Shown here: in pieces, positions 17,550 through 64,000 of the stretch | How positions within the stretch are numbered: position 1 is the first letter of the stretch | Layout: every line of letters begins with the position of its first letter | The notes under the pieces: model-generated | What the model was told of the DNA's origin: nothing | The model's database searches: none | Seen by the model: the letters and a program-made list of their open reading frames with translations, nothing else | Assembly: GCA_973895155.1 (NCBI GenBank) | Contig: OZ316892.1 | Location: forward strand, 19,665,869 to 19,729,868 | Direction of reading: 5' to 3' | From: Marsupella aquatica | Taxonomy: Eukaryota; Plantae; Marchantiophyta | DNA: 64,000 nucleotides | Program-made: the position numbers and the translations under genes

Positions 17550-17575
17550 TACGGTGTTCGAAATGTTGTGGGGAG
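17550..17575 (+). repeat. Left TIR of the giant transposon
   Basis: TACGGTGTTCGAAATGTTGTGGGGAG, preceded by GAGGC. Confidence 0.92.
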
Positions 17576-19503
17576 TTTTTTCCAGAAAAAGAGTCTAAAG
17601 AGAGAAAATATTCAATATTTCACAAGAAAAATACAAATACCCCAACTTATTTTGTAGGATACCCTAAAGTGTAATTTTCACGCATTTGAAGTAATTTGAA
17701 ATAATTTCTCACTCACTTCAGTAATTCAACAAAAACATTTTGAACATTATCATGTGATACATAATATCATTCACACATGAATTATGTTTTTAAAATATTC
17801 TAACAAAATTGATATTTTTTCTCCACTTTTTGAAATTCAAAAACTATTTCATCCTTCATTTTTGTATACAATATTTTGAAACTTTTCAATCCTTGAAATC
17901 ACAAGAATTCTACTCATGAGTGAAAACTCACAAAATATTTCCTACACCGAACAAAAAAAATTCAAAGAGCAAAACATAACATTCAATCAGAGAGTTGGAG
18001 AGTAAAACACATTTATATACCAAATCAATGAAGAAGCAAAAAAAGTTGACCAAAATAAATCATCTTGAAAAGTGTGAATGTTTTTTTTCTCTCCTTACAT
18101 AGTTGTTTTTTCTCTGTAAGGTTCCGTAAAGTGAAAATTTCTCCCCTTATCTACAAGCCAACCAGAAATGTCCAACTGTCCAACTGTACTTTTTGTTGGC
18201 TCGAAGACATGGGGAGAAAATTTGTACTTTACTCAGCCAATACTTTTAAGTTTCAAGGAAAGAAGAGGCCAACCTGAAGGATTAGGTTAGTCATCTGGGA
18301 AGAATGTTGTTACTCCATATCTACAAGTTCCAACCATGGCCAAGTAAGTCTGCATGTTGGTTCAACTCCTCCATTGATAGATTTACTCTTCCCAATGGAT
18401 TTGACTGGTCTATCATTGGGACATGGGCCTTGATCACAACAGACAAGCACCTCCTTCTTGCCTTCTATTTTTATGAAATTTATTAGTCCACTCTAATTGA
18501 GATAGGGAGTATATCATTCTGAGGTGGGTGGGATCCTCAAAGGACAAATCGTGCATCCCTCAATGGCAAAATTAGAGATGTTATGGAGCAACTAGAGGCC
18601 TGGTGTTGAATGCTGAACAAACAATTACCCCCAAATGTTGACATGCTTAAAGTTACTAATTATATAGGTCTACAAGTCCTTTATACCTCTGCATCCTTCA
18701 ATGCTTGTCTTTTGGATTGGAAAATATTGGGCATCCAAGCACAGGATAGTATTGGGCTTAAAAGTGTCTTTCTTGTTGAATCATGATGAAAATGTTTATG
18801 TCTGTGCATCCTGCAATGCTTGTCTTTTGGACAATATTGGCCTTAGAAGTGCCTTTCTTGTTGAATCATGATGAAACTGCAAGTACTCCTCAAGGTTTAA
18901 GAGCTGACAGTTTATTTCTTTGCAAGTTCTACAAAAACACTCTTGTGCCACTACTTTCAATGGAACGTTAATATATTTACTAATGTGTCAAAAGTATTTT
19001 GAACTGCCTCTTTGATAGAAGTTTTGGGATTCAAAATGATCAATTCCATCCAGGCTATGATAGAGACATTATTGTGAAGTTTGAACAGTCCAAAGTCTTT
19101 ACCAACCATTACACAAGATAGATTAATAAATAGCAATTTCTGTCAACTTTGAAATGAACTCTCAATCACATTACTTAAAATCAAAGTACATTGTGTTGCC
19201 TCCAAACTCAAAGATAAGTAATTTTTGCCTTAAATACTAATTCTTGATGATTAGCAAGCTAGATAAAAAATAACTATTGGAGGCTGTCTGGTATCCAACA
19301 ATGTTTTCTTTTGTGATCCTTCCAAGCCATTGCATTTCTATCGTCTCTTGTAGAGTGTATAACCTGAAAATCCTGAAAAAACAACATGAAATATATTCAC
19401 ATTAATGATACTGAGAAAAAACAATACGAGTTTCCACAATACAATAACACATGCAACGGTTGAAAAATTACCTTTGTTGAATCTTATCAGAAGATAATAA
19501 TCC

Positions 19504-22500
19504 TTATAACTTGCCGTAGGCGGTGTTGAAACTAGCCATGACCAACTTGGAGTGCATCACTTCCACATTTGGATATGCAGGAATATCAATTTGTTTAGAA
19601 CAGGTGGATGCAATAGGCAAAGAGCTCGAAGGTCGACTAGGGCTAAAATTCACATGACATATTGTACCTGCATTGTATTTCTCATCTGTAATAAAGAAAA
19701 TTGACCAATTGCTTCTTGAAATAAGTCTTTCAATGCTGGTGGAAAATCTATTGAATATCTGACCCTTGACAAAAACTCTCTATTTGTGATTCCTTGTTGC
19801 GCACTGAAAAATGCTTGCATGGCTTTCACAGAGACGTCTTTAAATGTACTTGTCAACACAAGCTTCTTTTCAGCCTCGTTAATGAAGGGAGATGCCATCA
19901 CAGTCTTCGCCAATGAGAAGAATCCGTCATGAAGTAGTGCACCAACCATGCTGCAAGCTCCAAATAGAGTCTCATATATGATATCTGCATACAATTTTGT
20001 AGTTGCTTTCTGAAATGCTTCAGTTGACCAGTTTGGGTCAAGTGTTACAACCCTGCAATAATATTCAGGCATTATATCCTCCATGCTGTCAATGAGACCC
20101 TCTCTTGATTCTTCTGGAACATTAATCAAAGACTGCATGAAACCATACCTGCAATAAAAAGTCTGATCATTACCTATAAAATTTCTTCTGGAGCATTAAT
20201 CAAAGACTGCATGAAACCATACCTGCAATAAAAAGTCTGATCATTACCTATAAAATTAAGATCACAGTATAAAATGAGAAGACAATAATATCATAGAAAT
20301 AATGTATAACAAAAAAGTGCACGGTTCCCACTAGGTACATTTACATACCATGTTGGTCGAACAGCTCGAAAATCTTCTATATAAATTGATCGTTTTGTTT
20401 TTTCTTATTGCACTTGCATGTAAATATCTTCACGGGAGGGACATTTACCCATGGCATGAGCAATTGTGGCCATTGTGATTGGACGATGAACTTGTTTCTT
20501 TTTCAATATGAGAAGAAACATGAGTTGACCAACAAGTTGAACCTGATGGAATATGACAAGTAAAAACCTAGTTAAAATCAATAACATTAAAAAAATTGAA
20601 GCAATGATATAAACCACTGAAACAGTTTGGAACACTACAATTGAATAATATTTTAAAAACTTTACATTGTTATTTATGACTTACATCTTTCTTGGAGATT
20701 TCTGTAAACTGTTTTTTGGAATTAAGATGATGAAGTCCGCCACATCCCTCTGTGAAAACTGCATGGAATTCCTGCATTGCATAAATATGTTAATTATGAT
20801 TCAAGGTTGAATTGCATGACTAGTCCCCAGACTAGTCTTGAACAAAATTATTGATTCATGATCAAGAAAACTTACTGCACTTCCACTAAATAGAGTCTTC
20901 CAAGCCCCTGTCAACAATCTACTTGTGACACCCCCTGCATCTACAGTTTCAGATTCCTCCAGTGTTACTTCTCCACTATGTGTTGTGTAGATTAACTTTG
21001 CTGCAAAATCTCCAAATATCTCTTGTCTTCTCAAGGCTTCTTGGCACATCTTTCGAATAGCAGTTAACTCATCACCGTCATAAAATTGCACAAACAAAAT
21101 AAAGTTATTTAGATGTATAAACTTAAATGCAAAATGACATTAAATACAACAAGGCTATAGATAAGTATGAACATTTTCAAGACCGGGTTTCTTTTGTTTC
21201 TACATTACCCTGAATTCGAATTTGGGGAACCTGCCTATAGAGTTTCCGAAAGTGAGAAAGTCCAATGTCAGAAATCTGATGGACCCTTAACAAGTATTTT
21301 GTCCTTTCAGTTTCTTTTTTGGCTTCAATGTACATATTTTCACAACTTGTAAGCGTCGGTTCTTCAAGCTGACATTTTCCAATCCATTCAATGTATTCGT
21401 CGCGCAGAGAGATAATGCGGGCTTCTGAAAATTTCCCTTTCCCGTATGATGGAGTAAGCAAATAATCTCTGAAATAATGCTCAACAATCCACAGCATGTT
21501 GTTAAATTCAACAATGAAAACTATTCACTTTAAATTTACAAAATCATAATTTTAATGGAATGCATTCAGCTCACTGCATCTGATGAAAATGAACACTGAA
21601 ATAAACATGTCAACCATTAATTACCTGAAGATTTGTAATGATCTGTCCAAATCTTTTTGAACAAACTCAGGAACAAGATTGGGTATGAGTTTTTGCAATT
21701 GTTCCCACATGTGCCACCTTGGAATGGCTGCTGCCTCAAAATAGTATCCAAAGTCATACTTGGTATACGAACTTAGGCCTTCTAAACCATTTGACACTGG
21801 TGTAACAAAATCTTCCAGCATTGCATCTGATAATCCCAATTTTGCTTCTCTTCGATGTTGAAGGAATTCCAGATCTGCACAAGCAACTGTAGCATCCATT
21901 TTATTGCGTTCCTCTACTAAAACGGCATCAAAATTTTCCCAAAAGATTGCCATGGCTTGATTTGGTGCTTGATCCACAGGCAACTTTATGCCTTTATCCA
22001 ATTTTTGAAGCCGCTCTTGTGCTGCACAATACGCATCTAGCAGGGCTGATGTCTCTGTCTCACTTGTTATAAGATCGTCCTCAAATCGGTCATTCTCGGG
22101 TGTGCCTGTACAATCACAAAATAGTTCTAAAAATATTCAACCATCCACTCAAGCCTACATATTATAAGAATCAATCCAAACCCGAATCAAAATCCTTAAC
22201 TCTAAATCCTGAACCCTAATCAACACACAATTCTGACATTTTCACTTACCTCTTTGTAGTAATCTTGATTGTCTTTCAATAACCTCTTCATTTTCCAATA
22301 TAATGGGACTATGAACAGTCCCTACAAGGCTTACTTCATTCTCATGTCTTGAAGATCCAAAGACTAGGGCTCCTTGTGCAGGTATAGCTTCGTTCAAAAC
22401 ACCTCTGGTTCTTGAAGTTTGAAATGAATGAGCTCGTAAAGGTAAAGTTGGCAGTAATAATGCACCTGTATCATGTTTCACAATTACCCAACACATTAGG

Positions 22501-25118
22501 GTTGGATTGTCAGATTGCTGTCACTCACATAGCCACTCTGTACCCTTTTTAATATATATTATGATTTCATGGCAGCACTGTTAACCTAATAACGCCTTAC
22601 TGTAGACATCTTGAAAAGCCTTACATACTACAGTAAAGCATCTCAAAGCTTGGTATCCAGATTGAGCTTCGGCCATAACTATAACTCAAGACTTAGATAT
22701 ATAGAAACTTTACAAAAGTTGTATGAGGTCAGGCAAGGGAATCCACATGAAGAGACCAGAGCATCTAATGGAGAGCAATAGAGCAATAATTAGCACGCTG
22801 AGAAAAGCAAAATAATGTCTTGACAATTCCTTATACAAAAGTTGACCAAAAGACCGATGACTTAGTATGCCAATGATTTACCATTTAATTACTCTACTCT
22901 CCTAAATGCAGGTGTACATTATGATCAGAACTGTGATGAGTGCGATATGATTTCATTTTACTCAGCAGAACTAAAGAATGTTTTTTGCTTCAAAGCTTTG
23001 GCTGGCTGCACACAAGCCTATGATGCTAGACACTCCATTTGTTCCTCATACTAATCAGCATTGATGGAAAATACCATGGCTGCTATGGCTTGAAGTGTGT
23101 ACTAAGGGTCTTCCTCTTGAGCTAAGAAAACATGTACAAACTTGCTTCAACACGCTTGCAATAAAAAACTCATTGGTCGGTAGTCGATCTTGAAGTGGCC
23201 AAACTTTCAAGATTCCCCAATGCTTTCATCAGTTAATTGTTTTGTTGCACTAAAATGCAAAAGAAGGAAACACCTGAAGCGGGATTGGGACCACAAGTAA
23301 GCTTTGGAGCATCAATCACCCCACAACAAGGCAGACAAACAGAACACCACCAGAAGCGCACAACAAAAACCATGTTGGTCAAAAATTGAGGGGATGCGGT
23401 ACAAAATGCACAACCAAGAAGAGCAATCATTTGCAGCCCATAGCCTCATTCAGAACATGCTTTCATAGATCTTACATATGCATGCTGTGCAATACTAGTT
23501 TCATAGGTACACCTACAAACTAACCCCCACCCATGCTAACATGTAAGAAATTGAATAATTATTAAACTAAAGTGATCTATGGCCAAGGAAACTCAAAGGA
23601 TGCACGTACTTGAGTCACCATGGGGTGAAGACGAGCTGTCATTGGGCTGGGTTTGAAACTCAGAAGTCGAAGGGTTTCCCAATTGAGGTGACGAGCTCGT
23701 TAATGGAGATGACAAATTAGAGGATCTTCTTGACAGATTTTGCGGGGCTTCAAACCAGAACAATGCAATAAGCAATTAGATACCTAATTTGATCAATTAC
23801 ATAGAAGCTACACTGTATAATCCATAAAGCTTCATGGTGTATTTTTCACATCAATGGAGCTAGAAATGATTTACCTGTTACTCAATATTACTTGTGCATC
23901 GATCAAGACAAATGAAGTTGATATCCTTACCTGTCAAAGTTATTGTGGGGTCGTGCAAGTTTTCTGTCTCCTCAATCCCTTCAGACTCAGAAGCTGCAAA
24001 GCTCGAGTTTGAGCTCTCTCTTTGAGTGTTAGAATTCCATGACTGTGAAGGACTTTGCACATGTTCTGTTTCATTTTCAAATGCCCGACGATGCTCTGTC
24101 GTTGGAGAATCTTCTGAATAGACAAAAGTTTCAATTAATATGCAAATCATATCCAAAGACTTGCTGGGAAAGAGCAGAAAAATGTCATAATCTAAGAATC
24201 TAGTAACAATGATGACAAAAATGTTTGCTTGCTTTACCTGAACGTGCAGTCGAGTGACCATGGATATTTCGTCTGGTATCTCGTTTACGTCGACGTGTTC
24301 CTTGTGAAGGCACAATAATTGTTGCACCTGAACAACCAGCCGCCTCAACATGGTAATGTCTTATTTGTTGTGGCGTCATTTGACAAGAGGGGTCTGGAAT
24401 GTATACTACTTTATCAAACCGAGACACGTTTCTCCATTCGGTGTCCCCCGATAGAAAATATGAATCTAGTGTTGCACCACCTAGTTTGTCCAGGTCGTCT
24501 TTGTGTTGCCCAACATTTGTCATTCTCAAAAAGCATCCTGATATGTCAGCGTAACCAGTATTTTGGGCCCATTCTTGAGATGCCACAATTTCCCGAATAT
24601 GCCACTGAGCAGTATTTTCCCGGAATTGACCTCCATCATAGACACCACCCCAAGGCGTTGACCCAGGTAGACTAACATATATTGGAGGCCTGAATTTTTT
24701 CACTCTTCGCATGTAGCAACTCTGATTGCCTGTGTCCACTTGTTGTGCCTCCCAAATTTGTTGAGGACAATATATAGCACGACTCACTGGTTTATCATAA
24801 TTCCTTCGATTGCAAATTATTGGAGGAGGTCTCGCAATCATCTGTCTCCTTCCTCTGTTTGCCCCACCTCCACCTCTGTTCCCTCCACCTCCACGTCTAT
24901 TTGATCCACGTCCAGATTCTCCTTCAGGTTGATAATTGTATTGGTGATACGAGGTTGGGAATGTTGGAAATTCATATAGTGGAAGTGTCACTGGCTCAGT
25001 AGTTTCTCGAGGACCCGATTGTGTACTAGGTTCCTAGTGGGATCATCCTTGAATTTCTGTTGTATCCTTGGACAGGGTTTCTCTGACGAGGATCTCGACT
25101 ATCAGTAGGTTCATCCAT
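19504..25118 (-). pseudogene. Multi-exon HECT-domain E3 ubiquitin ligase (transposon-borne), disrupted
   Basis: The HECT N-lobe motif ETVDAGGVTSRLL lies at ~20910-20950. The C-lobe reads LPIASTCSKQIDIPAY...KLVMASFNTAYGKL* with the catalytic Cys at 19600-19602 and the stop at 19504. Clear GT-AG exon boundaries include a donor after 24238, exon 24113-23931, exon 22106-21624 and an acceptor before 20148. Lesions are an in-frame TAA at 20405-20407, a frameshift at ~19668 and a disrupted 5' end. The start position is approximate. Confidence 0.85.
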
Positions 25119-26066
25119 ATTGCAATTCTGAATGCAACGCAAGATTGAAACCCAAGATCCAAATGGCCAAGAACCTGAGGCTCTGCTCTAGTTCATTACT
25201 ACTTTTGCGAACAGAGTGCAAAGTGTCGAGCTCAAAGGTAGATATCACCGAGTAGTACAAATTATCTTATATTATGAGCAGAAAGTAATAGATGTTGTTA
25301 GAGTACAGCCGCCATTTCAAGAATTTGGTGAACATTAGTATCACATTAACTTCCAGTACATATCATATTTGTTAACAATCATCTCATCATAATGAAGACT
25401 AGCTACCGCAGCTCTTTTTAGTAGCTCTTTTTAGCCCTCGGATACATAATTGCCAAAAGCGGGTTACCGTATTTCTTATTTTCTTTAGAAGACACTGCTA
25501 CGCATGTAAGATGATTGAACTATTGTAAACTATAGTATTGTAGCTAGTAGTACACTCCAAACTATTCAAAGTTAGAGACATGCATGAAAGAAATAAGTAT
25601 TTTAAAATTGTGTCGATTATTAAGGTCCAATTAGAGACATGCAAAATTTATAATTAACAGGAACTTTACATGTCACCAAACAATTATGTTTGTTGGATTT
25701 GACTTGTCAATGGTGAAGAGTGGGCATCGTGACTTATTCCCCAAGTGAAGGTTGGAAAAACTAGTGTGAAGAATATGATTGGTTCATGTGCACGAATGAT
25801 ACATATTTTTTGGTGCCAAATTCCAATAGAAAGTTTGATAGTAAACGTGGCAATAACTATTACAAAAAAATCCCTACCATTGATATCTATTGATGAATGG
25901 TCAGTAATTTGTAACATTGGTTAGTATGCATGAATTTAATTGTAAAAAACAAACATGATGTGGTAGCTTGTGTGAGAGTTATAACGCATGTGGGATTCAT
26001 GCCATTTGCCACTTGCAAAATGACAATTAATGCTTGTGACAAATTGGGTTGAGCCTCTTATGGGAT

Positions 26067-26815
26067 TCAGGGAGACGCTTCAATGATTTGTCATTCAATG
26101 CACCTCGATTCTCCCCCACATCGGGAAATACCTAATGCTCTCTCCCCATTTTTGTGGCCCCGTTCAGTCTTGTGAAGGGCACAGATTCTGGAGGAGAATC
26201 TAATGCTCGATTGTTTTAACTAGGCTATTATAACTGAATGTAGTCGGGTGGCCGAGGGATGGAGGCGCAGGGCTGGCCGTGGCAGGGTCCGTGGCAAGTG
26301 GTGAGTCAGGCAAGGGTGTTGGGGCTCGCCATGGCAGAAAGGAAGGAGGGCGGCGTGTGGGCTGGCCGGGGCCGTCGTGAGTGGTGAGGCAGGCGAGGGC
26401 GATGGGGCTCGCCATGGCAGAAAGGAAGGAGGGCGGCGTGCGGGCTGGCCGTGGCAGGAAGGAGGGAGGTAGCCGGGTGGCCGAGGGAGGGAGGGACTCA
26501 GGCGGCCAAGGGAGAGGGGCAGTTGTGCGGCCAAGGAGGAAGGGCGCAGGGCTGGCCGTGGCAGCAAGGAGGGAGGAAGGTAGTCGCGGCCGAGGGAGGG
26601 AGAGACTCAATCGGGAGTCGGTAGTCCCGTGCATTCAGGGAGACGAGTCCCTGCATTGTCATTCAATGCACCTCGATTCTCCCCCATAGCCCACCTGAAT
26701 ACTCTCTCCATTTTTGTGTCTCACTTTCAAGCCAGCCCCATTTTTGGGTCCCAGTTCAGTTTTGAGGAGGGCACAGATTTTTGATTGAGGAGTTCTAATG
26801 TTTGATGGTTTTAAG
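26067..26815. repeat. GC/CpG-rich island bracketed by ~150-180-bp direct repeats
   Basis: TTCAGGGAGACG...TTGTCATTCAATGCACCTCGATTCTCCCC occurs at 26067 and 26634. The core is built from GGGCTGGCCGTGGCA and GGGGCTCGCCATGGCAGAAAGGAAGGAGGGCGGCGTG repeats. Confidence 0.85.
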
Positions 26816-29800
26816 TTATTCACAAATAATGTAAAACTATAATATTAATTTTAAAAATATCAATATATTTAATAAAAAATATATAATTATTATAAAATAT
26901 TAAATGGTAATGAGCACGGAGAATTGATGCACAGAAGTAGTGTGTGACCTAGTGGTATTGGAGGTCAGTTGAGACTAAGACGTGGCGTGTTAAAGGCACA
27001 CGATGGGCAACTTTTTTTTTCTTTGATTGAGGGCATGGAAAGGAATGAACTTTGGAGGGGGCGAGGGTGTCTCATTGTATTTAAAAATGAAAATGGTAAA
27101 TGAGATATATATGGTTCAAGTAGTTTGGAGATAGCAAAAATAACAAAGGAAACACCCATGAGAGCCAGGGAGATAAATTAACCTCTTTTGTTAATTTCCT
27201 ATACCTGCTCATTGTTGTGAGGTGCCAATCATGTTCCTGGTGGGTAGTTGCTTTCAGTTTTAGGAAGAATCCAACAAAAGAGGTTAGCACAAGAAGCCAA
27301 CAAAAGAGGTTAGAAGTCAAAAGGCAAACAATATTAGAGGTGGTGTTGACAAGAGAAGAAAAGCCTTGTGCAACAAGCTGAGAAACCAGTAAGACAAACG
27401 AAAGCCCCTATGAAAAAGGCACAAAAACCAACCCAGCACAAGGCCCCTATGAAGTCCAAAAGTGTGTGGTAGAGAAGACAACAGGGCCAGGAGTGGTAAG
27501 TGTGCTCCAATTGACAGGTTTTGAAAGTTTGCAAGGAATTGGTGCAAGCATGGGTCTGAATTCTTTGAGTGTCTTGACAAATGTGACAGCACCTTTGGTA
27601 CACTTGTTTCCCAGGGTAGCCAACTTAGACTATTTCCAACCTTGTATGTAGAAAAGATATGTGATTGAGTGATTAATTGTAGGGTGGTAGACTGCCGTTG
27701 GCTTCTAGGTTTTCTATTGATTTGAAAACAAATTTCATGAATAAAGTTTTGCTTCTTATACAATAAGATGTGTGCTTACCATAAATGGTTTTGGAGATAA
27801 ATGGTTTTTTATGTGATCATGTCTCCTCAACTTTTTTGTTGCTGCTATATGGCGCATCCTTGGTTCATATCCCCAAGTCCAATTTGTTTGGACATTATTT
27901 ACAGACCCCCATGGGAAGTTCCTTCCAAAATCCCTAGCACCACGTTGAGCCACATCAGCAGGAATGGCCACAAACAAGAAAATGTAGATGTGAAAGAAGA
28001 ACAAAACCTGATGGTTCGTGTTTGTGACAAGGCAAAAAAAACTGTCAATCCCGGTAACTGTAAAAATGATAAAAAAAACTGAAGAGTAAGTTGAAACAAA
28101 CAAAGAACGAGGTAAAGAGTAATTAACACTTGGAAGTTCTAGAATTGATATATCAGTGTTTGCATTAAATGTTAGATTTTCTCTAATTTTAAAAGATTTT
28201 TAAATAAACACTGCTAGAGGACATAGAAACAAACTGTTGGGCTTCAATTCCAAGATTTTGTAATAAGTATTTGGTGAAGTAACAAATTGTTGGGTTTCCA
28301 AAGTTTTGTAATAAATATTTGATAAAGTAAAAACAAACTGTTGGGTTTCCAAGCACTGGTAACTGCAGTAAGTTGTAGATGGTACGTTTTAGATAGCTTG
28401 AGATGACAAAGGGAATGGCTTGATGACTTGAGAAAACATGACAAAGCTAATGGCTACCCTTATACTCTTAGATCTGGCAATTTGCCCCCTCACCCAAGCC
28501 AGTTTTTGGTGAATTTAGTAGGAATATTAAATCACTCCTGCAAGTTACAAACAAATCCTGCTACTTATATTATTTGGCAATTCCTCCTACTAATAGATGG
28601 ATTGGGACACAGGGCACATCTGGGAAATTGATAAATCCAGGCAAACATGAAGGCAAACATTGATTTTTGATATTGGCAAGGGACTTTGTAGCTGAGGTGA
28701 ACAGTTCTGTTGACAGACATGACATGTCTTATGCACAAAATTCAATGATAAACACCAGTTTGTCTCTAAATATCAATGGTTTATAGTCTGAAAATCAACT
28801 TACACCTGAGCTTCAGAATATCATAACAAAATATCGAGTGAAGTTTTAAAGGAGTCTAGTTGGCCTTGACATTGATGCTACTGTTGAAGTGGCTCCTGAT
28901 ATTGGTGACCCAGGTGAAGAGCCAGCTCAACCCTTGGGGCTGTACAATGTCTTGCAAGGATGAGACACATGGGACAGATTGTAGGAGGTTGAAAAAAATG
29001 TTAGTTTGTAGCTTATGTGAGACAACATCTACTATTCATAGTTGATTAAAGTGAATCAAAGAGATCTTGTTTGCTCAATGTGTTTCAAGAGTACCCCAAA
29101 CTGCAAATGTGAGGAGGAGTTATAAATTTCTGAAGTTTGCTCAATATTTGAGTAGTATATGAAAGGAGTTATAAGTTTCTGAAGTTTTCTCAATGCTTGA
29201 ATGAGTAGTAAGTTTTGTAAATTGTAATCAAATATTTTGCACATTTTTAGCTTTTTTATAAGCAAATTTTAACTATTGTCCATTCTTTGTTTTTAACTTT
29301 AAGTATGTGTGACACTATTTGACTTGTGACCACAATTAGTGTCATACTATATTAGTGTCACACACCCTAATTACCATCACTTACCTCAAATATAACCTCA
29401 CAGTAATTAGAGTCTGTGAGACTACATACTGTAAAGAGTGTAGTTACCCTTGGAAATATTATAATGGATTAACTAGTAAAACATGCAAGCTGGGAAGCAA
29501 TGGGGAACCATTGGCCAAATGACACTAAGAGAAAATATCTCTTTTTGAATTATAAGTGACCTAGCAATACTTCAGTTGTTAGTGGCCTATAGGTGTCATG
29601 CTAATTACAAGAGATTTAATCCCAAGATTTTTATAGATTACATAAAGACATGTTAGTGACTAGTCAAACACTGAATCATGTAAATGTTACTGACTAGTCA
29701 AAAAGTCACTCATGTGACCATGGTAGGTGAGTCCTAAGGAAGTCATATAAATGTAGAAGTAGACTTTAGTTGCAAGACATCAGTATACCTTACACCCATT

Positions 29801-30779
29801 TCATGCAAACTAATTTAGACTACACATTTTTTCATGTACACTTGTGAAATAGTGTTTGAATTATTTGTATACCAACACTATATCTAATCACAACATTTAG
29901 TGTTATATCCATTGCTTTTCTAGGTCCACAGGCATAACAAAGTTACAACTTGAGAATTCCTCCAAGCACTATTCTTCCTCCTTCAACTTCTTCCCTCCTT
30001 TTGTATTTCAAACTTGTCTTTCTCAATGAATGTATTGCTCACTATGTTAGGGTACAAGGCCTTGGGGGCAGTTTCATTGTTTTTTCACCAGAGCTAATTA
30101 ATCTATCAGCCATGTAACATCCTAAAGCTAGATAGTGTACCAGGGCTCAAAAGGAAAGTCTAGAATTATTTCGTGGTCGCTCGTTTATTCAGAATTTATG
30201 CAGGTCTTTAGTGGAGTCTTCTCTATCTAATCACAGTTCACGTGCTTTTGATTCAAGGTAAGATCCATCCAAAATGTTCCTTTCTTAATGCCCTTTGCAA
30301 GTTTTCCATTTGTATTTTTCAGGACATTCTTGGAGCATTATGCCCACCACAAGATCTGGATCACCTCTTGAGTAAGATTGTCCATTACTTTCACTAAATC
30401 AAGAAAAAATAAAATCTCTCAAGCCTTTCAATATAATAAGGTTTTATTTGCCAAACCATTAGGGAAACAACCCCTGCAAATGCAAGCTAAAGCTCTCATT
30501 TTTTGGTCATATTCCATAATGCCAACTAAACATGACTTTACTACATACTTCTAAAGTCTATTTTTTGCCTTCAATATTGTGTTTGGTTTTTTATGGTTTA
30601 CTGGATTTTAATGATCCATGCTCCATATTTTTCAATATGGATGCTAAGGCCAGTTGTTCTTGAATATTTTCCAGAAGAGTTGACATTATTTGCTCAATAA
30701 TCTTGGAAACTTTTAGTCAATTTTATCAATGCATATGTAGTCGTATAAAATTCAGGAGTCGTAGTGTTTCTTAAGTCAA

Positions 30780-31700
30780 ATTTTGATTCTAAGCTTGGTT
30801 TCCCTGAAACTTTGCCAACATAGTCGTGGCTCTTTCTTCCAAAATCTGGCAAAGTTTGAGTGCATTCCATGCAGCAAATGTTGCCCTACAAAATTTGAGT
30901 AACTCGCAGCTTTTTTTAGGTCAAATTTTATCGAGTTCATATCTCTTGATCGTTTTGTTTTTTCAGTTTCGATTCTGAACTCGGTTTTCCCTGAAACTTT
31001 GCCAGCACAGTCGTGACTCTTTCTTCTAAAATCTGGTAAAGTTTGAGTGCATTCTGTGCAGCAAATGTTGCCCTACGAAATTCGAGCAACTCGCAGCTAT
31101 TTTTAGGTCAAATTTTATCGAGTTTGTATCTCTTGATCGTTTTGTTTTTTCAGTTTCAATTCTGAGCTCGGTTTTCCCTGAAACTTTGCCAGCACGGTCG
31201 TGACTCTTTCTTCTAAAATCTGGCAAAGTTTGAGTGCATTCTGTGCAGCAAATGTTGCCCTACGAAATTCGAGCAACTCACAGCTATTTTTAGGTCAAAT
31301 TTTATCGAGTTCGTATCTGTTGATCGTTTTGTTTTTTCAGTTTCAATTCTGAGCTCGGTTTTCCCTGAAACTTTGCCAGCACGGTCGTGACTCTTTCTTC
31401 TAAGATCTGGGAAAGTTTGAGTGCATCCTGTGCAGCAAATGTTGCCCTACGAAATTCGAGCAACTCGCAACTTTTTTTAGGTCAAATTTTGTCGAGTTTG
31501 TATCTCTTGATCGTTTTGTTTTTTTAGTTTCGATTCTGAGCTCGGTTTTCCTTGAAACTTTGCCAGCACAGTCGTGACTCTTTCTTCTAAGATCTGGCAA
31601 AGTTTGAGTGCATTCTGTGCAGCAAATGTTGCCCTACAAAATTTGAGCAACTCGCAGCATTTTTTAGGTGTCATTTTCTGGCAAAGTTTGAGTGCATTTC
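30780..31700. repeat. 187-bp tandem array, ~5 copies
   Basis: GATTCTGAGCTCGGTTTTCCCTGAAACTTTGCCAGCAC...GCAGCAAATGTTGCCCTAC recurs every 187 bp. Near-identical ORF translations at 31026 and 31400 are 374 bp apart. Confidence 0.95.
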
Positions 31701-32278
31701 ATCATGAGAATGCTGCCCTAGAAAATCTGAGAGAGTGACAGGTTTCCTTAGGTCCAATACTATCGATTTCAATCTCCCGATCACCATGGCGTTTGACAAG
31801 ACCACCACCATTGTTGATGTGGATGTTCTATTCACAATCTTCAACGGAGAAAGATTTGTAAGTGAAATAATGCTTTCTGAATTTATCTCTTTGGATTAGG
31901 TTATGTTATTTCAGTTTGTTTGTCCATGAGCTCATTATGCCCTGTCTGTTACAAGTCGCTTTTACAGATGCAACGTTGACTCTAAAATCAAGTCTCCCAT
32001 TGCTAAGTTCGTGCACTGGATGACACCCTACTTGATACACCGTATCTTCAATTTTTAGGTATGTTACATACTACCATAGGAGAAATCTTTGTGATTCACA
32101 TTTTGTATGGTGGGCTAATGTTACCTTTGAATGTGGCTGCTTGCCGTCCAACATAATTTTTGAACTCGGATGACAAGAATTCATTCTAAATTTAAGCTTT
32201 TTCCTAGGTCATAGTCTTTCTATTGCACATAGTTTGACAAATCATTGAGAATTTAAATCATTTTACAGGTTACTCAAT

Positions 32279-33976
32279 ATGGAAGGACTGAAAGACAAAA
32301 TAAAAAAAAGAAGAAGTGAGACTCCAATTCTAAAGGTAAGATATTTTCTCACTACTAATATACTTTGAGATCATAAAATGTTTGGAATATATTTGAAACC
32401 AGTACACATTTTGTGAGGCCAATTCATTGTCAGGTGAATATATTGATCGTTGACCTACTGGGGGGCGTGACTTCCCGTATAGTGGAAGAAACCTCATTAT
32501 CCGGTGGCCGATACAGTCTATATTCTATGGCTATGTTTTGTGTCCGAAATGTTTAGCATATATTTGATACTCATCGTAGGTTTATATTTGTTATTATTAC
32601 TGCAAATTTAAGATGAAACTCGTTTTTCTTTTATAGGGCAAAAAAACAGTGAAGGTATCTTCCGAGAGGTTCTCTGCAGCATCTCTTTATTTCTGTGAAA
32701 TCATCAAGCTTGCTCAAAAAGCTGGCGGGAAAGCAGGACATTTTCATACAAAAATTCTCTGTAAGTGGTTGTTAGGCGAATACTATCTTTTCGAATATGG
32801 AGTACAGATATTATCCGAGGGAAACCTAAAAGGAAATCAGTCAACCTTTTTTATGGTTTTCACAGTTTAAGAAGAGATGGAAGTTGGATTGCTTGGTTTG
32901 ATGAAAAAGAATGGAGTAGCATCAATCATATGATAATGAATCGTTACAATCTATCATCTGTTGGGAGAGGCTTATCAGATCGGATACAGAAGTTCCGAAC
33001 TGATCCAGACATGTATCTAAGAAGTAAGAAAGATCATTACCAGAAATTTGGAAAATCCCGTATAAAGTTTACAAATTTCACCAAGAAATCTTCCAATTTT
33101 GTTGGTAGATTTTCCTCCAGCTATTTGATTGAGGAAGATTTGGAAACACCTTGGGCAAATCGAATTATAGTCTGGAGACCGATGATCGAGCCTTTCTACA
33201 AGATGAATATTTCATCAAGAGTGGAGATTTGGATGGATGGTGATGAAATCATTGGAGGTCGGATGAAAGGAGGTGTTCCAGAGAAAGATAGATCTTTTGT
33301 TCAGTTGTTTGTGGAAGAAATATGGAATGATAAATATACAGTGAAGAGGTCAGATACACGATCTGCATTGAAAAATGTCATGAGGGCAATTGGCCCATTA
33401 GTGAACTGGCGAGAAGGGAAAGGTAATCATTTTGTGAGCTTCTACCGTAACAAGTTGAAGATATCACAAACACAGGATCCTACTGTGGTTCAATTAGAAT
33501 TGCTCTATGAGCAATGTGCACATCGATTACTGTTTGAAATTATTTTTGTTCTTTTCTGTGAACACTTTTGGCCAGTGGTGGAGAGTTTTATTGAGATTAT
33601 GCCTCCAATGATGGAACTTAGCAGTGAGCTTTTGGCTTGTTTTTCAAAGCCTGAACTCATGAAAAAAGCCATTCCTGCATATCCTTTATTCATCACAAAG
33701 GATTATTGCAATGAAGTTCATACAGATGTAGATGAAAGCGAGTTTACAATGTTCATGGCATGTAATCCATCGAATGAAAGTAGAGGTGGAGATTTAGTGA
33801 TGCTAAAATATGGAATTAAAATTCCAATTTTAGATGGAGATTTGTTTTTTGTTCGGGGTCAAGATCCTCATGCTACATCGTATAGAAGTCCACCAATGAA
33901 ACCAGTATATGTAGTTGGAATTGCCGTAAACCAAAAACTTGGCAATGCTTATGAGTTTCAAGGTGAAAGTAATTAA
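32279..33976 (+). CDS. TET/JBP-like Fe(II)-dependent dioxygenase (double-stranded beta-helix fold), one frameshift
   Basis: Exon 32279-32335 (MEGLKDKIKKRRSETPILK) splices in phase to 32637. A frameshift lies in the T6 run at ~32847-32852. The C-terminal domain reads YCNEVHTDVDE...GGDLVMLKYGIKIPILDGDLFFVRGQDPHAT (HxD...H). Confidence 0.7.
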
Positions 33977-34417
33977 ATAAATTTTGTGATACACTAAGAT
34001 TAGCTATGCGGGTTTTCTTTTGGTCTATTTTTTGTTTATTATTATGGTGGATTTGGTTATAATGGTGTACTATATAATTATATCCTCATGCTAAAGTTTT
34101 TAGTTTATCTTCTTGTTATAGAATTTTTGTTCATTGGTGCTTGTGGCTGTAATATGACTTGTGAGTTTTTAATAGGTTCAAGAAAGCCAATGAAAATTTT
34201 GAAAATGTCATCTGCTTCCAAATTGGGAATCATCAACAATTGTTTATGAACAGGCAGTGTTGGGGCCAAGCTTACAAGAGCAATAGTCCATTGTTGTAGA
34301 AAACAAAAATTGAATGACTACTGTTATTTGTATTTGTATATGGTTGCAGGTGTTAAAATTGTTAGTTGATGAAACTGTGGAGTATAATCTATACTCAACC
34401 CACGCTGGACAATCAAT

Positions 34418-36067
34418 ATGAATGATCCAGATTTTCAACAGTATACAGATGTAAAAAGAGCTCTCGACCTAGGGTACACTATGAATGAATGTGCAGATGC
34501 ACTTGGTGTACATAGAGTGACTCTATGGAAATACCTCAAAAACTTTGATATTGAGCATAGAATATATCCCCGATATACTTTAGAAGATGTTTGCTCTCTT
34601 ATTACTGAGATTGTATCAATCCATGGATATGCTGAAGATTGGGGAATACGTTTCGTTAGAGCACGTTTAAAAAGGGCTGGTTATAAAATCTCACTAGCAC
34701 TTGTCAGAAATGCTTTGGACACATTACTTCCTGGTGTACTTGAAGGAAGGGCACGAAGATGCATCATAAGAAGGTTTTATGATGTAATTGAGCCAATGCA
34801 TCTGTGGCATATGGATTGTAAGTAGAACATCTATGTCTCTTCTAAATTTTTCCTACTTTTAATTTGAAGTTAACTTTAGAATAGATCCTCAATACTAATA
34901 GATTGTTTGGAAATTGAATGCAGCATATGATAAATTGACGCAATGGGGATTCAGAATTCATGGTGCAATTGATGGGGCTACACACTTTGTTCCATGGATG
35001 CATGTGGCATTGAACAAGAAAGCGCAGACTCTATATGTGGGATATAAGACAGCCATACTTAGATTTGGTCATCCATTGATGATTCGTTCTGATTATGCAA
35101 CAGAGCATGTTTTGGTAAGAAGAAACCTTGAAAGAGCAAGACCAAACACAAATTGTTTTCGCACGGGGTCTTCTATTCATAATCAGGTAATGTTTCTGAT
35201 TAAAACATATAGAGTGGTTCATTTCATATTTCATGTCATCAATTGCAGCTTGGAAATTCTGTAAATTTGAAATCAATTTTGTGCAGGTACTTATATTTGT
35301 ATCCTATCATATGTTTTGGCAGAGAATTGAGGCATTTTGGAACTACATGAAACAAAAAGGAACTAATCACTTCAAGAAGACTTTATATGACTTATCATGT
35401 GTGGAAGGATTTTTACAAATTGATATCCCACTTCATAGATATTGTATGGTTACTGTGATTCTTCCTTTACTGCAAGAGGCTGTAAATGATGTGGTTTTAA
35501 CATGGAATGCACATATTGTGAGAGCTGTGCGGACTGGAGGTATGTTGAGACCATCACATATTCCAGAACTTGCATTTCAATCACGAGAAAGAGAAGCTAG
35601 AATTATTCAGCCTCCACCTTATGCCGAAGAAGCTCAGGTGGATATCGAACAAGAAGATGACATCATCGATCCAATGGGAATTGATTATTGGAATCACAAC
35701 AATGATCGTGGAAACTTTGAAGATCGCATAAACGATTTGAATGATGAAGTAAGCATTGTTTTGTATTATTATTAATGTTCATGTGAATTATGAAATGATG
35801 ATATAAGATGCCCTTATTCATGTTTTATTTCTTTTGCAAAATCTACAATACATTCGTGATATTGCATATGAAAGAAACCAAGTGACAGTCACAACTGCAA
35901 AAGACAAATTGCGAATGCATCTTCTTCTTTCTATAGAGTGTCAAAATAGTATGGACGCTTCATTGGACTTGGAGGACTATGTACAAAATGAATTAGGGCT
36001 ACCTAATTTGTCAGATGATAGATTATGGGCCTTAAGATCCTTGCAACAAACATTACAGATTATATGA
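34418..36067 (+). CDS. HTH + integrase-core DDE transposase (IS3/IS481 fold, IS3EU-like), 438 aa if spliced
   Basis: Exons 34418-34817, 34924-35186, 35323-35748 and 35840-36067 are all in phase. HTH is GYTMNECADALGVHRVTLWKYL. The catalytic triad lies in WHMDSYDKL..WGFRIHGAIDG, IRSDYATE and GSSIHNQRIEAFW. The last acceptor reads CAA instead of CAG. Confidence 0.92.
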
Positions 36068-36199
36068 CTGACACAATATGTGAGGTAATATAATAGTTTA
36101 CCAGTGACACAAACACTTCTTCTTGAGGCTTTAGCAATATTCGAAGAAATTATTTTCTAGTCTATTGGCTTAAGAGATACTTGTTCAAGTTTTGAGCCC

Positions 36200-38580
36200 A
36201 TAATTTTGCTCTCATCCTAGTATTTAACCTAGCTTTGGACCCTTGTCTGAAAATGCCAATAATTAAATCCTTGATTTTTTTTCATAAATTTGCATCCAAG
36301 ACTAAGCATGCCTGGTATTTTGATTCCAAATCCACTTTCACATTGTTGGTTTGAAATCTCCTTGGCCAGTTGTAGTGGGGCAAGTTGATTCAAGTCCTTT
36401 GTATTTTGTTATAATGGTCCTCCTATTTACCCTAACTTTGGACCCTAACTAGCTTGTCTCAAAAAAATGCCAAGAACAAATCCTCAATATTTTGTTGTGT
36501 ATTTATAGCATAGACTGAGCCCAATTAACATTGTGATTCAAAATCCACTTACACTTTGAAGGTTAAATCTTTCCTAATGGTGGTGGTGGAGCAAGTTTGT
36601 GATCTACCTTTGTATTTTTTGTCATGGTAGTCCCATTTACCCTACCTTTGGACCCTTGACTTAGACAATGTCAAGAAATAAATCTTCATTAATGTAATGT
36701 GTATTTACACCCTAGACTAAGCCCAGGACCAAGCTTGACCTGGTGATTCCAACTTTGCTCTCACTTTGTGGGTTCCATCTTTCTTTGCTCACTTGTGTGG
36801 TGGAGCTATTTTCTTTATTGTCCTAAGTTGTATTTTTGTTATTTACTCGCAGTGACCCTAGCTTTAGACCCAACCCAGCTTGTCTGAAGAAACCAGATCC
36901 TTATAACTTGTTTATGTTGTACACCCTCCATTTACAATGATTGTTGTCATTGGACAAGCTCTCATTTTGTTGGTTTCACCTTTTTTAAGTCACTTCTGTA
37001 GTGGTGCAAGAGTATTCAAGTCATTTCTATATTTTGCTCCAGGAGAGTTTATTGTCCTTTAGGCCCTTGTATCAAAATGCCAAACGTCAAATCCTCATAA
37101 TTTTGTCACAAGTTCACACCCTGGACTAAGCATGGTATTTTCATTCATAATTTGCCTGTCACATTGCTGGTTTGACATTTTCTTGGTCAGTTGTGTGGTG
37201 GATCAAGTTTGTTCTCATCCTTTGTATTTTGGATATGATCTTCTCATTTACCCTACCTTTAGACCTTGATTGAGAAAAATCCCAAGATACAAATCCCCAT
37301 AATTTTGTTGAGTATTTACACCCTTAGTAGACTGAGCCTGGCTTGGGTCATTCCAAATCCACTCTCACTTTGCTGGTTCAGCATTTTCTTGGCCAGTTAT
37401 GTACCATGACAAGTATACACAGTACCATGACAAGTATACAATAAATGGAGAAATTTACTTGTCATGGTCTTGGCCAGTTATGTACCATGACAAGTATACA
37501 AAGTTAGGGTTAAATGGGAAGACCATGACAAGTAAATTTCTCCATTTATTTACACCTTTGATTGAGTCTGGTTTGGTGATCTCAAACCCACTTTTATTTT
37601 GCTGGTTGCACATTTTCTTGGGCAGTTGTGGGATGGAGCTCGCTTATTTAAGTCCTTGGTATTTGTGTTATGGTTCTCCCATTTACCCTACTTGACTTTG
37701 GGCCTTTGTCATAGAAAAATGCCAAGAAACAAATGCTCATGGTTTTTTTTTTTGCATTTACACCTCATGCTCATAATGTGAATCAAAATCAGTTCTTGAT
37801 TTCATTTTTCCTTAGTTAGCTATGTGAGGGAGCAAGTTTGTTCACGTTCTTTGTATTTTGGTGAATGATGATCCTTCCATTTACCCCACTTAACTTTGGA
37901 GCCTTGTCTAAGAAAAATGCCAAGAAACAAATTCACATGATTTCTTTGTGTATTTACCCCTAAGGCTAAGCCTGATATTGTGATTTGAAATGTGCTCTCA
38001 CTTTATTGGTTTCATTTTTCATAAGTCAGTTGTGTAGGGGAGAAAGTCATTTGTATTTGGTTAATATGAGCTTCCCATTTACCTTAGCTTTGGATCTTTC
38101 TTTCAAAAAAATGTCAAGAAGCAAATTAACATAACTTTTTACACCCTAGATTTAGTGGGCCTTGGTGATTCCAAATTTGTTCCCACTTTGCTGTCAGTTT
38201 GACATTTCTTTGGCCAATTGTGTGGTGGTGCAGGTCAATTCAAGTCCTTTGCATTTTTGTTGTGCTCTTCCCATTTACCCTAGCTGTGGACCATTGTCTT
38301 AATAAAATGCTGAGAAACAAATCGTCATATTTTCTTTGTGTATTTACACCATAGAGCGATACCCAAATGTGTTCAAGTTATTTGTATTTCTAAACAGTGT
38401 TGGTATTTACTCTAGTCTGGACCCCTTTGAAAGAAATTGCCAAATAATAAATGCTGATAGTTTCTTTGTGTATTTTTTAAGAGACACAGCATGACCGACC
38501 TTGTGATCGCAAATTGGTCCTGACTTTGGTGGTTCTACCTTTCCTTGAACTGTTGTTGTTGTGGAGCAAGTATGTTGAAG
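36200..38580. repeat. Degenerate ~200-bp tandem array, ~11-12 copies
   Basis: Recurrent blocks CCATTTACCCTAGCTTTGGACCC, AAAATGCCAAGAAACAAAT, GTGTATTTACACCCTAGACT and TGTGATTCCAAATCCACT at ~200-bp spacing. Confidence 0.85.
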
Positions 38581-39509
38581 CCTTAGTTACGCCTTTTTTT
38601 CTATGGTGATGGTTAGTCATAAAATATGGTTAAGGTTAATGTTTACAAAACTAACTTATTTATCAATTAGTTATGAATTAAAGTGTCAATGGACCAGGGT
38701 AGTATGAACAAAGTATCATGAGGGTTTGATGTGAAGGGGGTTCCAAGAAACACAGATAGATAGCGATAGACCACATTATCCTTACCAGAATAAAAGTTAT
38801 TTTTTTAATAAAATGAGTTAAGTTCATATAGTCATCTGGGCATTTTGTTAAGCATTTAAGTGCATGAGTTTTAATTAGTTCCTATTTATTCCCTATTTAG
38901 AAATTGGATAATCGGTTTTTCAATGTGTACAGTAGTTTGTTCAATGAATCACTCCCCCCCCCCCCAAAAAAAAAAAAAAACTCCCGCTTGAAAACTATTG
39001 CATGTTTCTCTCTTGAGAATGAAAACCATTTTTTAGTTCTCTAAAATAAAATAAAACCTTGGTGGTGGTGTATATTTTGTGTGTTATTTTTTCTGGATGT
39101 GCATTGTTTTTTGGGGTGACTTTTCCGGGAGAAGGTATTTTTTCCGTGAAATTTGTTCTCCCTTCAAAATGCTCCATTTTTGTTATTCCCCTAACTATCA
39201 TTTGGAGTAAAACCTTTTACTTTCTCCAATATCTCAAAATGAATTTTCTCTGTAGAATATTTTGAATTTTTTTACTCTTTATTGAATGCTTCAAATATTT
39301 CTCACCTTATGTTATTTCCAATTTTTTCCAATGTTGTGTTTGAGAAGAAAAATTATAATTACACTATGTAGTGACCCATTTGATTATTTTTACGCATTAC
39401 TAGTTATGTAATTCTGTTTTTCTCCCTTTATCTTTCCAGTTCCGAATCCTCTCTTTTCAGACTCTTTTCCGCAGATATTTTCTCTCGGTTCAACTTTTTA
39501 GCAGATTTT

Positions 39510-39535
39510 CTCCCCGCAACATTTCAAACACCGTA
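39510..39535 (-). repeat. Right TIR of the giant transposon
   Basis: CTCCCCGCAACATTTCAAACACCGTA (reverse complement TACGGTGTTTGAAATGTTGCGGGGAG), followed by GAGGC. Confidence 0.92.
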
Positions 39536-42500
39536 GAGGCGGAGCTCCACTTGGAGACGTCCGATGAACATTACATTCTAATTACAACCGTACTGTGACC
39601 ATAGTAAGGTTCATCATATTCACGATGGAGTTAATCTCATTAATTAAGCTTGTTTCCAAAAGTGTGATCCCATTAGCCATGATTTCCATAAGATTGTCTC
39701 CATTAGGTCTCAAGGCAGGAATATGGTTGACAGGTGTGGACTTATGAGACATCTTGATATTCTGGTTGCAGGACTAGTTAAAGAATTTAAAATGGGGGGA
39801 GGTGGCATTGACCCGCTCCATTAGGCAGGAGTTAAGACCTCACCTCATCTCATAGTACATATCATTTTTTTTTTCATTCTTGGTCAGTTGTTATCTCAAA
39901 TGCAGCAGTTCACCACGTCAAACACAAAGCCTACTTGCCTTCGATTGTAGCTTTTTGGATTTTTGGATTCCTGGATTCCATCAAAAGTTGCTGGAAATTT
40001 GGCATGGTTATTGGTTAAGTACTGAGCCCGCAGGCTTTCCTTACTAGTATCCAAAGATCAACTCCCAGATTAACCTTTACAGAAGCTTCCATAACTCTTA
40101 TAAGTTATAAGGATAAGAAGACATCTCCTGGTATGGCAGAGTATTGAGAAGCACTCTTTGCAATAACAAAGAGACACTACTGTGCTTGTGTGACACCAAG
40201 CAAGAAAAACAACTAGATCCAATAACCATAAAAATTGAAAAGGAAAGTTTAAAATAACAAGCAGCAGGGTAAAATTAAAACATTTATTGGGAACACTTAA
40301 ATATAAAACATTTCAAATTTATGCTCAGTCTATGTTAGCTACGTTAATCACCTATAAAATTTTCAGGCCAATTTAATCTGCTGCTGTGGTGTACCTCATT
40401 TCTGTTTGGCTGGCTTTTCTCTTCGACCATGTTGTCGAGCGTTTTATGCCTTTCCTTTGGGTGCTTTGTGGGTTTCCAGCCCTTGTTTTGGTTCCAGGTC
40501 TGCTGGTTCCCCCCCTTGTCCGTGGGGTTTACGCGAGTCTTAATTCAAAATTAAGAAGTTTTAACCAAATAATAATAATAGAACACTGGACTGAAATTAA
40601 TGAGCCACATTAAACTGTCTGGTAACCAAATTTAAGGCATTGCTTATTTTGGTTTCAAAGAAGAATGACATTTTAGGTTTATTTACAAAAGTGGTCAAAC
40701 AAAATACAACAAAGAAAAAGCCAAAGAAATCCAAAGCGGACAATACCAAACTTGAAAGAAGAAGAGGAAGAAAGTATAATCTGAACAATGGCAAAGCTTA
40801 TTACTCAGTTTATGTGTATCTCAGCTGTTCTGCATCTGATTATACAACCACCAGTCTTGGGTTCAAATGTTGTTATGGCCCTCAATGGCTTAAAGGTAGA
40901 TGATGATAGGTACTACATAATAATAATAATAATAATTTTAAACAGACTCTCAGGGTTTTTCCCTCAAGCCAGTTCTGGGGCTTGAAGGTTCCCTTCAATG
41001 GGTTCAGACATCCACCTTGACGGATTGCTTAAGGAGTACCTTGACGCTCCCCCTAAAATCCTTAGAGCATGTTGTCATGTGAGATTTAATTAGCAATTCA
41101 GTTCACATGGCAGTCCTCCACTCCAATCAATTTTGTGATCATTTAAACCCATCATACAAACCATTTTCCAGTTAACTTTCAGGCTGGAAGAAACAAGTAG
41201 TTTGTGGTCACCAAAGGTCCCAAAGAGATCAATGGTACAACCAGCTGCAGTAATGCAAATTACGATGGTTGGATATGGGCACACATACCAGTCAAATATA
41301 GTGGGTATGCCTAGAACATGGATCACAGGAGATGGTAGGGAGAGGAGTCAGGGCTGAATATGAGGTTCAAAGTGGGGATCATCCCTGCTTTTGTTCTCCC
41401 CAATTGTCAACTCTTCCATTTTGACCAGATGGTGGGTGCAGGCCATCAAGCTGCTGAAGATGCTCCTTGTGACTAGATGCCTAAATGCATATTGAACCTG
41501 CTAGCTAGAACCCTGGTTCCTCCCATGGAGTCCGACCCTCACAAGGGTTAATTTTTGCAAGCTCGAAACTCAAAAGTTTACAGCTGGGATTTGCCACACC
41601 AAAGTGCTAGTTCCTAACCAAGAGGCTGGATAAGAGCACAGGCTCCAAGGCACGATGTTACTGAAGTTGACCTGGTATATTTGTTCATTTGTTCTTCCTG
41701 TAAGGCTATAAGGCCAAGCCAAATTGCACGAGGATTAGAGGAAAGAATTTTCAGCAGCCACACATTGTGCCACATAATGAGTTGCAGGAGATAACCTAGA
41801 GTGCTGCACAGAGTTGTTTACACTACAATGTGCTGTGGAGCATAGGGCAGGAAAAGAGTGGCCCTCACCCCTTGTAAAACGCCGTGGCAGCTTGCATGGC
41901 AGACTTCAGGTTCCTGCTGGCTGGAACTTGGGTTCTCACTAATGTGAAATGAGCTAAGTGCCTGGCTAAGTATAACAAACTAAGTGTGCCGGATGAACCT
42001 GGGTTCCCCTAATGTTAAATGAATCCTGGAAATGATGAGCTAAGTGTGATGAACTAAAGGTGTCAGATTATTCTAACATTTAAAAACGAAGTGCTCTTCT
42101 ATACTATTAAAGCTGATGCACTCTATCTTTCAAGGCCTCCACTTTGGGGAAAAGCATGACAAGGGGCCAAGTTGGGCTGTTGTCCTGCATAGCACAACCA
42201 ACCAGGACTTGCATAAGTACATGACCCATGTGAAGGGATCAGGCATAGTCATTGGGCCCGTGACCTATAGTGGGTAAATATATACACTGTACTTGTATAT
42301 TAAGCAAATGTCCTTCCTGCATTGTGAAGTGACGAACTAAGGGTGACAGACTGATTGAGCTTTTAACAATCTAAGTACTCATCTATACTATTAAACTCGA
42401 TGCATTTTATATTTCAAGGCCTTGTCTAGAGTGAAGACTTGATGATGGTCACGAGACAAGTATGCTGACAAAGCAAAAGCAGCTGTCTGGAAGGCAACAC

Positions 42501-63999: not shown

Positions 64000-64000
64000 A

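Follow-up and report, generated by a model that had tools for sequence, protein, structure and literature searches.

A TET/JBP-like gene lacking the usual last-strand arginine in a GingerRoot-like DNA transposon of the liverwort Marsupella aquatica

Land plants are described as removing 5-methylcytosine (5mC) by ROS1/DME glycosylases and not by oxidation. A TET/JBP-like dioxygenase gene in a liverwort transposon, without the arginine that usually binds 2-oxoglutarate (2OG), raises the questions of whether the gene is related to TET/JBP enzymes, whether it belongs to the transposon, and what has become of its co-substrate site. The gene lies in a 64,000-nucleotide stretch of Marsupella aquatica DNA (contig OZ316892.1, positions 19,665,869 to 19,729,868; the window), for which a sequence-only reading had proposed it. 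TET cargo on DNA transposons is already known from fungi, including IS3EU elements (PMC12730594), and from Chlamydomonas (10.64898/2026.10.09.758095, preprint); these and the other reports named below are cited from the parts of them that were available. The feature described here is real, and is TET-like cargo in a new host group with a change in the active site. Neither TET/JBP cargo on transposons of land plants nor this Arg-less clade was found in the literature searched, a coverage without most subscription papers and Repbase.

The setting is that of a plant genome, as had been proposed, with the flanking RAB5 and SKP1-like genes matching plant proteins best (Table 1), and by composition the window is depleted of CpG and not of CWG. 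Other features outside the transposon include a 273-aa frame at 13606–14424 (+) with no Pfam match, which we take to resemble the zinc-finger/restriction-like endonuclease region at the C-terminus of non-LTR retrotransposon proteins, and a MITE- or foldback-like sequence of ~1 kb with long inverted arms (56855–57900) that has a partial second copy at 61579–61704.

Table 1. Features of the window, with positions counted from its first nucleotide.
Feature	Position	Strand	Remarks
Whole GingerRoot/IS3EU-like DNA transposon	17550..39535	+	21,986 bp; termini TACGG...CCGTA
Left target-site duplication, GAGGC	17545..17549	+	5 bp; perfect copy of the right one
Right target-site duplication, GAGGC	39536..39540	+	5 bp
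Left terminal inverted repeat (TIR)	17550..17575	+	26 nt; differs from the right TIR at 2 positions
Right TIR	39510..39535	-	pairs with the left TIR
One or two multi-exon cargo genes	19500..25150	-	divergent from the TET-like gene
187-bp tandem array	30781..31669	+	4.8 copies, 93%; upstream of the TET-like gene; CpG o/e 0.91
TET-like gene, exon 1	32279..32335	+	19 aa; basic KIKKRR patch
TET-like gene, exon 2	32637..33976	+	~200-aa helical part, then putative dioxygenase domain; stop 33974–33976
1-nt frameshift in T run	32846..32852	+	specific to the window copy or its assembly
Upstream Arg	33347..33349	+	invariant in 12/12 rows; 124 aa ahead of the HxD His
H-x-D-x-D	33719..33733	+	predicted iron ligands His 33719 and Asp 33725; nearly invariant second Asp
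Distal His block	33869..33886	+	predicted iron ligand His 33869; Thr at +2; clade-specific Arg at +5 (33884)
Last strand	33905..33931	+	V33905 and V33911 instead of canonical R-x-S; conserved Asn 33929
DDE transposase, spliced	34418..36070	+	HTH and PF24764 rva_4 (E 2e-15); D 34814, D 35091, E 35329
Degenerate ~200-bp subterminal repeat array	36200..38550	+	CpG o/e 0.10
RABF2-like GTPase gene	47800–49700	+	behind CpG-rich region; best solved match plant RABF2b, narrowly above human RAB5A
SKP1-like gene fragment	54431–54770	-	four best matches are plant-type SKP1-like proteins
Kelch-repeat gene, FKB95 type	63040–64000	-	host gene

The proposal that the gene is transposon-borne is borne out by the element's termini, its perfect 5-bp target-site duplication and the transposase beside the TET-like gene. 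The TIRs agree at 23 of 25 positions, compared with 16–18 in shuffled sequence (50 shuffles, maximum 18), and the TET-like gene is situated 440 bp upstream of the transposase in the same orientation. The transposase is stop-free over three exons with its D-D-E intact (coordinates of its 3′ end are approximate), and its core is by eye nearly the same as that of Selaginella GingerRoot rows in the supplement of Kojima and Bao. The element has the TA..TA termini with TIRs and the lineage DDE transposase of IS3EU/GingerRoot, the latter placed by its PF24764 match, its D-D-E and this near-match by eye; because the duplication at this single insertion is 5 bp and not the usual 6 bp, the element is called GingerRoot-like. 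GingerRoot is reported, in the accounts available, from mosses and lycophytes and as absent from seed plants; taken with the flanking genes and the CpG and CWG composition, this range would indicate a non-seed land plant as host.

Pfam finds no match in the opposite-strand cargo (19500–25150), and the alpha-kinase of fungal TET-bearing IS3EU elements was not seen there. One cargo exon (20804–21139), likewise with no Pfam match, contains a stretch that presumably recalls the D-x-G-G motif of HECT domains, and a 74-bp tandem duplication (20109–20257) sits at an exon edge. The element also contains a GC-rich, purine-skewed repeat patch at 26100–26730, the end of which resembles positions 90–352 in inverted orientation; this is probably a nested small mobile element. 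Many unrelated loose contig ends, on both sides and in several runs, fall at 30284–30350 and mark a short element, or a terminus, that is present in high copy number and lies inside the transposon.

The TET-like gene has a GT-AG intron (32336–32636) and encodes ~465 aa over both exons, with the KIKKRR patch of exon 1 a possible nuclear signal. When the sequence was re-read, the motifs named in the sequence-only reading were present at the places claimed (HTD at 33719, GGDL at 33785, GIKI at 33812, GD at 33836 and the distal His at 33869), followed by a YRS motif at 33881; the final strand reads PVYVVGIAVN from 33902, without R-x-S, and Arg is absent in both registers. An N-terminal part of ~300 aa without a recognized domain had also been described. 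It indeed has none, but its size is nearer ~200 aa since the putative dioxygenase domain spans ~260 aa (from ~33190).

The window copy of the gene carries a frameshift, both flanking frames of which match a 479-aa homolog (P0001; 49% and 53%). Contigs were taken from four of six listed public runs, representing two studies, three of which cover the site (X1 has no cover there), and the extra base is present at a depth of 50.2 of 50.2 in run X2, 184.2 of 209.8 in X3 and 426 of 426 in X4 (100%, 88% and 100%). As all three covering runs show it, the slip is a property of the window copy or its assembly and not of the family, and the reading frame is intact in other copies. At two sites in the transposase introns (35203 and 35807) all four runs have 4 and 16 extra bases, respectively, relative to the window copy, which thus bears further small deletions. 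Between 30000 and 37000 each run yields 192–640 contigs, of which between one quarter and almost one half have <95% identity, and a second subfamily covers the transposase; these raw contig numbers, the identity spread and the second subfamily suggest a multi-copy family. Loose contig ends of run X1 at 33807 and 33847 translate by eye to motifs of a distant subgroup made up of P0007, P0009 and P0010 (SPIDFVIP before and AFRSSVLHGT behind), so that a far-diverged paralog of the clade seems to be present in that run, with one contig for each end.

Relatives of the protein are diverged. Word-index searches yielded three, with a third search empty, and a full HMMER search gave 31 matches, two of which (P0026 and P0031) are spurious and due to repeats. 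The profile search finds ~27 relatives at 20–60% identity; among 20 clusters looked up, just two are named by organism, Planoprotostelium PRP78645.1 (P0025) and Geranomyces KAJ3183836.1 (P0032). Alignment A4 omits P0026, P0031, P0013 and P0002, and P0022, with an off-frame C-terminus, is excluded from the cross-table and the second tree. No relative of the TET-like protein was found in metagenome, viral or prokaryote contigs, against which the transposase gave just two 18-residue matches, and PHROGs and phage tblastn searches returned noise only.

Database and structural comparisons suggest a TET/JBP affinity through several concordant lines, each one weak. In the ESM Atlas the top three matches to the domain query are Tet_JBP clusters (0.95–0.96; recognition 2759), and the full-length query gives weaker matches (recognition 1867, under the reliability line) and also points to fungal clusters. 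Eukaryotic clusters in the Atlas, among which Mucoromycota are the commonest, score 0.94–0.95; Mucoromycota include symbionts of early land plants, and a fungal link of the TET-like gene is a lead only. Pfam returns no match for the window protein, PF12851 and PF20515 included, and these two families appear below threshold in 7 of 29 homologs (best 20.6 bits against a cut-off of 34.9), with no other 2OG family represented. By eye, the motifs also run parallel to those of the fungal PU- and PE-type transposon TETs, as far as these are available.

Profile searches of the PDB identify CMD1 of Chlamydomonas as the oxygenase match with two of four clade profiles, at scores that are near noise and alignment-dependent. 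With A4 it is the only oxygenase match (E 0.009), below a deubiquitinase (E 0.004); with A5 it is the top match (E 0.23); A6 gives no oxygenase, and A8 gives a non-nucleic-acid beta-hydroxylase instead (E 0.23). Single-sequence searches and a four-row profile search of the PDB also give no oxygenase. AlphaFold models of P0001 alone and of a four-row alignment have pLDDT values of 35 and 37, neither usable, and Foldseek on the low-confidence model has no match. The A8 match and the want of a structure would suit an oxygenase from a different 2OG branch, with a protein or small molecule as substrate, that was captured as neutral or host-derived cargo, and GingerRoots do capture host gene fragments (PMC6839031). 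However, every oxygenase signal in the Atlas and Pfam is Tet-type, and the gene is complete, with an intron of its own and an unbroken frame in other copies; we consider this origin highly improbable. With the Atlas, sub-threshold Pfam and weak CMD1 matches in agreement, the proposed kinship with TET/JBP is supported, and the protein is filed as TET/JBP-like and not as canonical because the last-strand Arg is absent from all 19 clade rows that cover the site.

The predicted iron-binding residues are strongly conserved within the clade, with His in 26 of 26 rows, Asp in 25 of 26 and the distal His in 21 of 21. The second Asp of H-x-D-x-D is present in 26 of 26 rows; counted at His+4 it is found in 27 of 28, and it aligns to CMD1 D349, one residue off D350. 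The invariant Arg at 33347 is likely the equivalent of TET2 R1261, CcTet R205 and CMD1 R244, an Arg that in TET2 and CMD1 touches both the base and the co-substrate, judging only by its spacing from the HxD His (124 aa here, 121 in CcTet and 101 in CMD1). The Arg of an NWR motif was dropped as a candidate for this residue as it is present in only 3 of 16 rows. Retention of the iron triad and of the upstream Arg at 20–60% identity would be needless for a pure reader, and it is very unlikely that the protein is a metal-binding, catalytically inactive factor shielding methylated or unmethylated repeats of the element, even though loss of the Arg kills CcTet (R385A is reported as dead) and the additional ~200-aa N-terminal domain could bind DNA. 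The 'catalytically altered reader' offered earlier is, in its dead form, unlikely given the nearly invariant triad.

The absence of R-x-S from the last strand, first noted in the window protein, is clade-wide, with V, A, T or S in place of the Arg in each of the 19 rows. The register is set by P0025 and P0032, which carry R-x-S/T in the column of V33905/V33911 in a profile-profile alignment (98.4%, E 8e-15, 210 columns), so that the canonical Arg falls at V33905 and the Ser at V33911. A register anchored on Gly was dropped, since this R-x-S/T-bearing outgroup fixes the other one.

A basic residue is found nearby. Arg or Lys occupies the position five residues past the distal His in 15 of the 19 Arg-less rows and in neither of the two Arg-bearing outliers; among these 21 rows none has both residues and 4 of the 19 have neither, although with a two-row outgroup and rows related by kinship the +5/+12 pattern counts as one evolutionary event. 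A branch supported at 94/97 (not starred) separates the 19 Arg-less rows from the others. As the +5 residue never occurs together with the canonical Arg, the basic residue may have shifted position instead of being lost, and the pattern suggests that the His+5 Arg/Lys compensates for the loss. In fungal AG-type rows (PMC12730594) the +5 residue and the canonical Arg stand at the start and the end of a short V-x-G-x-R turn. If the two are cross-strand neighbours, as such a turn would imply, an Arg at +5 could extend to the site of the canonical one. A proviso of the sequence-only reading, that the Arg of YRS might sit in the canonical 2OG pocket, is live in that this basic residue is conserved in most of the clade. 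Loss of the last-strand Arg does not look like decay, and the pattern agrees with a metal enzyme that remains active and whose co-substrate site has been remodelled.

We favour, at about even odds, the reading that the gene encodes a transposon-borne, anti-silencing 5mC oxidase in which 2OG is likely held by the substitute Arg at distal His+5. The protein would enter the nucleus and 5mC would be flipped into its pocket, with participation of the upstream Arg and the second Asp of H-x-D-x-D. Fe(II), O2 and 2OG would then give 5hmC or further oxidised bases, with the substitute Arg binding the 2OG carboxylate. Maintenance methylation would fail after such oxidation or the base would be excised by repair, as is usual in plants; foreign TET domains do demethylate plant DNA. 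Failed maintenance or repair would each leave the adjacent transposase expressible. An anti-silencing role of TET cargo has been put forward as a hypothesis for fungal transposons (PMC12730594). Transposons carry 10 of the 11 TETs of Chlamydomonas, where a deletion that takes in a viral TET accompanies a gain of 5mC, a correlational observation (10.64898/2026.10.09.758095). By analogy, the window enzyme may have such a role.

Several observations count against this reading. These are the dead CcTet mutant, the four rows with neither Arg, the missing base-stacking aromatic (the CMD1 F416 position is Ala, Thr or Val in the clade), the want of a usable structure, the absence of a Pfam match for the window protein, the alignment dependence of the PDB matches, and the CpG depletion of the element. 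The transposon has a CpG o/e of 0.39 compared with 0.47 and 0.54 in its flanks (binned P = 0.11); it is no less depleted than they are and so shows no long-term protection of its CpGs. CpG retention as a sign of self-protection was dropped, not being seen over the whole element; only the 187-bp array retains its CpGs, and young age explains this equally well.

The missing aromatic, together with the displacement of the second Asp by one residue from CMD1 D350 and the reported activity of CcTet on 6mA, would also accommodate an active TET/JBP-lineage oxygenase on another base, either thymine, 6mA or 4mC in DNA or an RNA base. The nearly invariant Asp after HxD nevertheless fits recognition of cytosine N4 and in CMD1 excludes T and purines, and plant transposon silencing works via 5mC, so this seems quite unlikely to us.

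A further possibility, which we judge somewhat unlikely, is a TET-like DNA modifier that, like CMD1, works with ascorbate in place of 2OG, or with some other co-substrate that is short or uncharged, and leaves a new cytosine adduct by which methyl readers are blocked on the transposon. It would account for the hydrophobic replacement of both R and S of R-x-S across the clade and for the four rows without any basic substitute, and CMD1, the nearest solved oxygenase in half of the clade-profile searches, is itself transposon cargo (10.64898/2026.10.09.758095). Residues corresponding to the CMD1 ascorbate contacts are conserved, with T or S in 26 of 27 rows in the Thr337 column and T in 19 of 23 in the Thr399 column, but they are common to Arg-bearing fungal rows and are not diagnostic of ascorbate use. 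The new conserved Arg would moreover be left unexplained, and the Trp358 plug of CMD1 is absent: the corresponding position (His+13) has V in 10, A in 7, S in 6, C in 3 and I and T in 1 each of 28 rows. A Phe at His+11 was dropped as the Trp358 equivalent, as it aligns on Ile356 and is found in only 5 of 28 rows. A bolder proposal, that non-seed plants harbour a transposon-spread TET-like clade that has given up 2OG, writes a new cytosine modification and is aimed by its N-terminus at its own tandem repeats, strikes us as unlikely.

A TET-like gene that is intact in a multi-copy plant transposon could be a source of plant cytosine that is oxidised or modified in some other way, and its product may join VANC as another type of anti-silencing factor on plant transposons. 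The clade-wide change in the co-substrate site poses an enzymological question, namely whether the Arg shifted to another position or, in the manner of CMD1, the co-substrate was exchanged, and a plant-adapted 465-aa 5mC oxidase, if active, could serve epigenome editing.

Among known systems, the fungal TET-bearing IS3EU elements (PMC12730594) share with the window element the transposon lineage, TAYGG..CCRTA termini, a TET gene adjoining the transposase, other cargo on the opposite strand, and similar motifs near HxD and the distal His-x-Thr. The window element differs in its plant host, a 5-bp and not 6-bp duplication, no alpha-kinase found, and hydrophobic V/A/T where the Arg would stand, along with a new Arg at His+5; in some rows of Kojima Table S1 the Arg of fungal transposon TETs is replaced by H, K or Q, and the words 'arginine' and 'Arg' are absent from the main text of that report. 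The window protein also has no match to the PU-type Pfam model of the fungal TETs. The transposase core is by eye very like those of SL_GR-020 and SL_GR-005, GingerRoots of Selaginella lepidophylla (Cerbin et al. 2019, PMC6839031), which share the TA..TA ends, GC-rich target and non-seed plant range. However, the window element is larger (22 kb compared with 3.9–12.9 kb), has shorter TIRs (26 nt compared with 100–150 nt) and a shorter duplication (5 bp compared with 6–8 bp), and carries a whole TET-like gene, where the Selaginella elements are described, in the part of the report available, with host gene fragments only.

CMD1 (Li et al. 2021, PMC7854593; PDB 7CY4–7CY8) resembles the window gene in being a TET homolog of the green lineage that is carried by a transposon and whose co-substrate site is altered, and the clade aligns with it at HxD, the distal His, Thr337 and Thr399. 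The parallel drawn in the sequence-only reading, by which CMD1 lacks canonical 2OG-binding residues, is not supported as stated: CMD1 retains Arg410, although the residue points away and its function is dispensed with, and Trp358 plugs the pocket, whereas in the clade the Arg is gone and the place of the Trp is taken by a small residue. The nearest named relatives, P0025 and P0032, are uncharacterised, keep R-x-S/T and are without the His+5 Arg; in P0032 Ala replaces the HxD Asp. The VANC proteins of Arabidopsis VANDAL transposons are unrelated and not oxygenases, but like the protein proposed here they are plant transposon cargo directed against silencing of their own element, with internal tandem repeats as possible targets.
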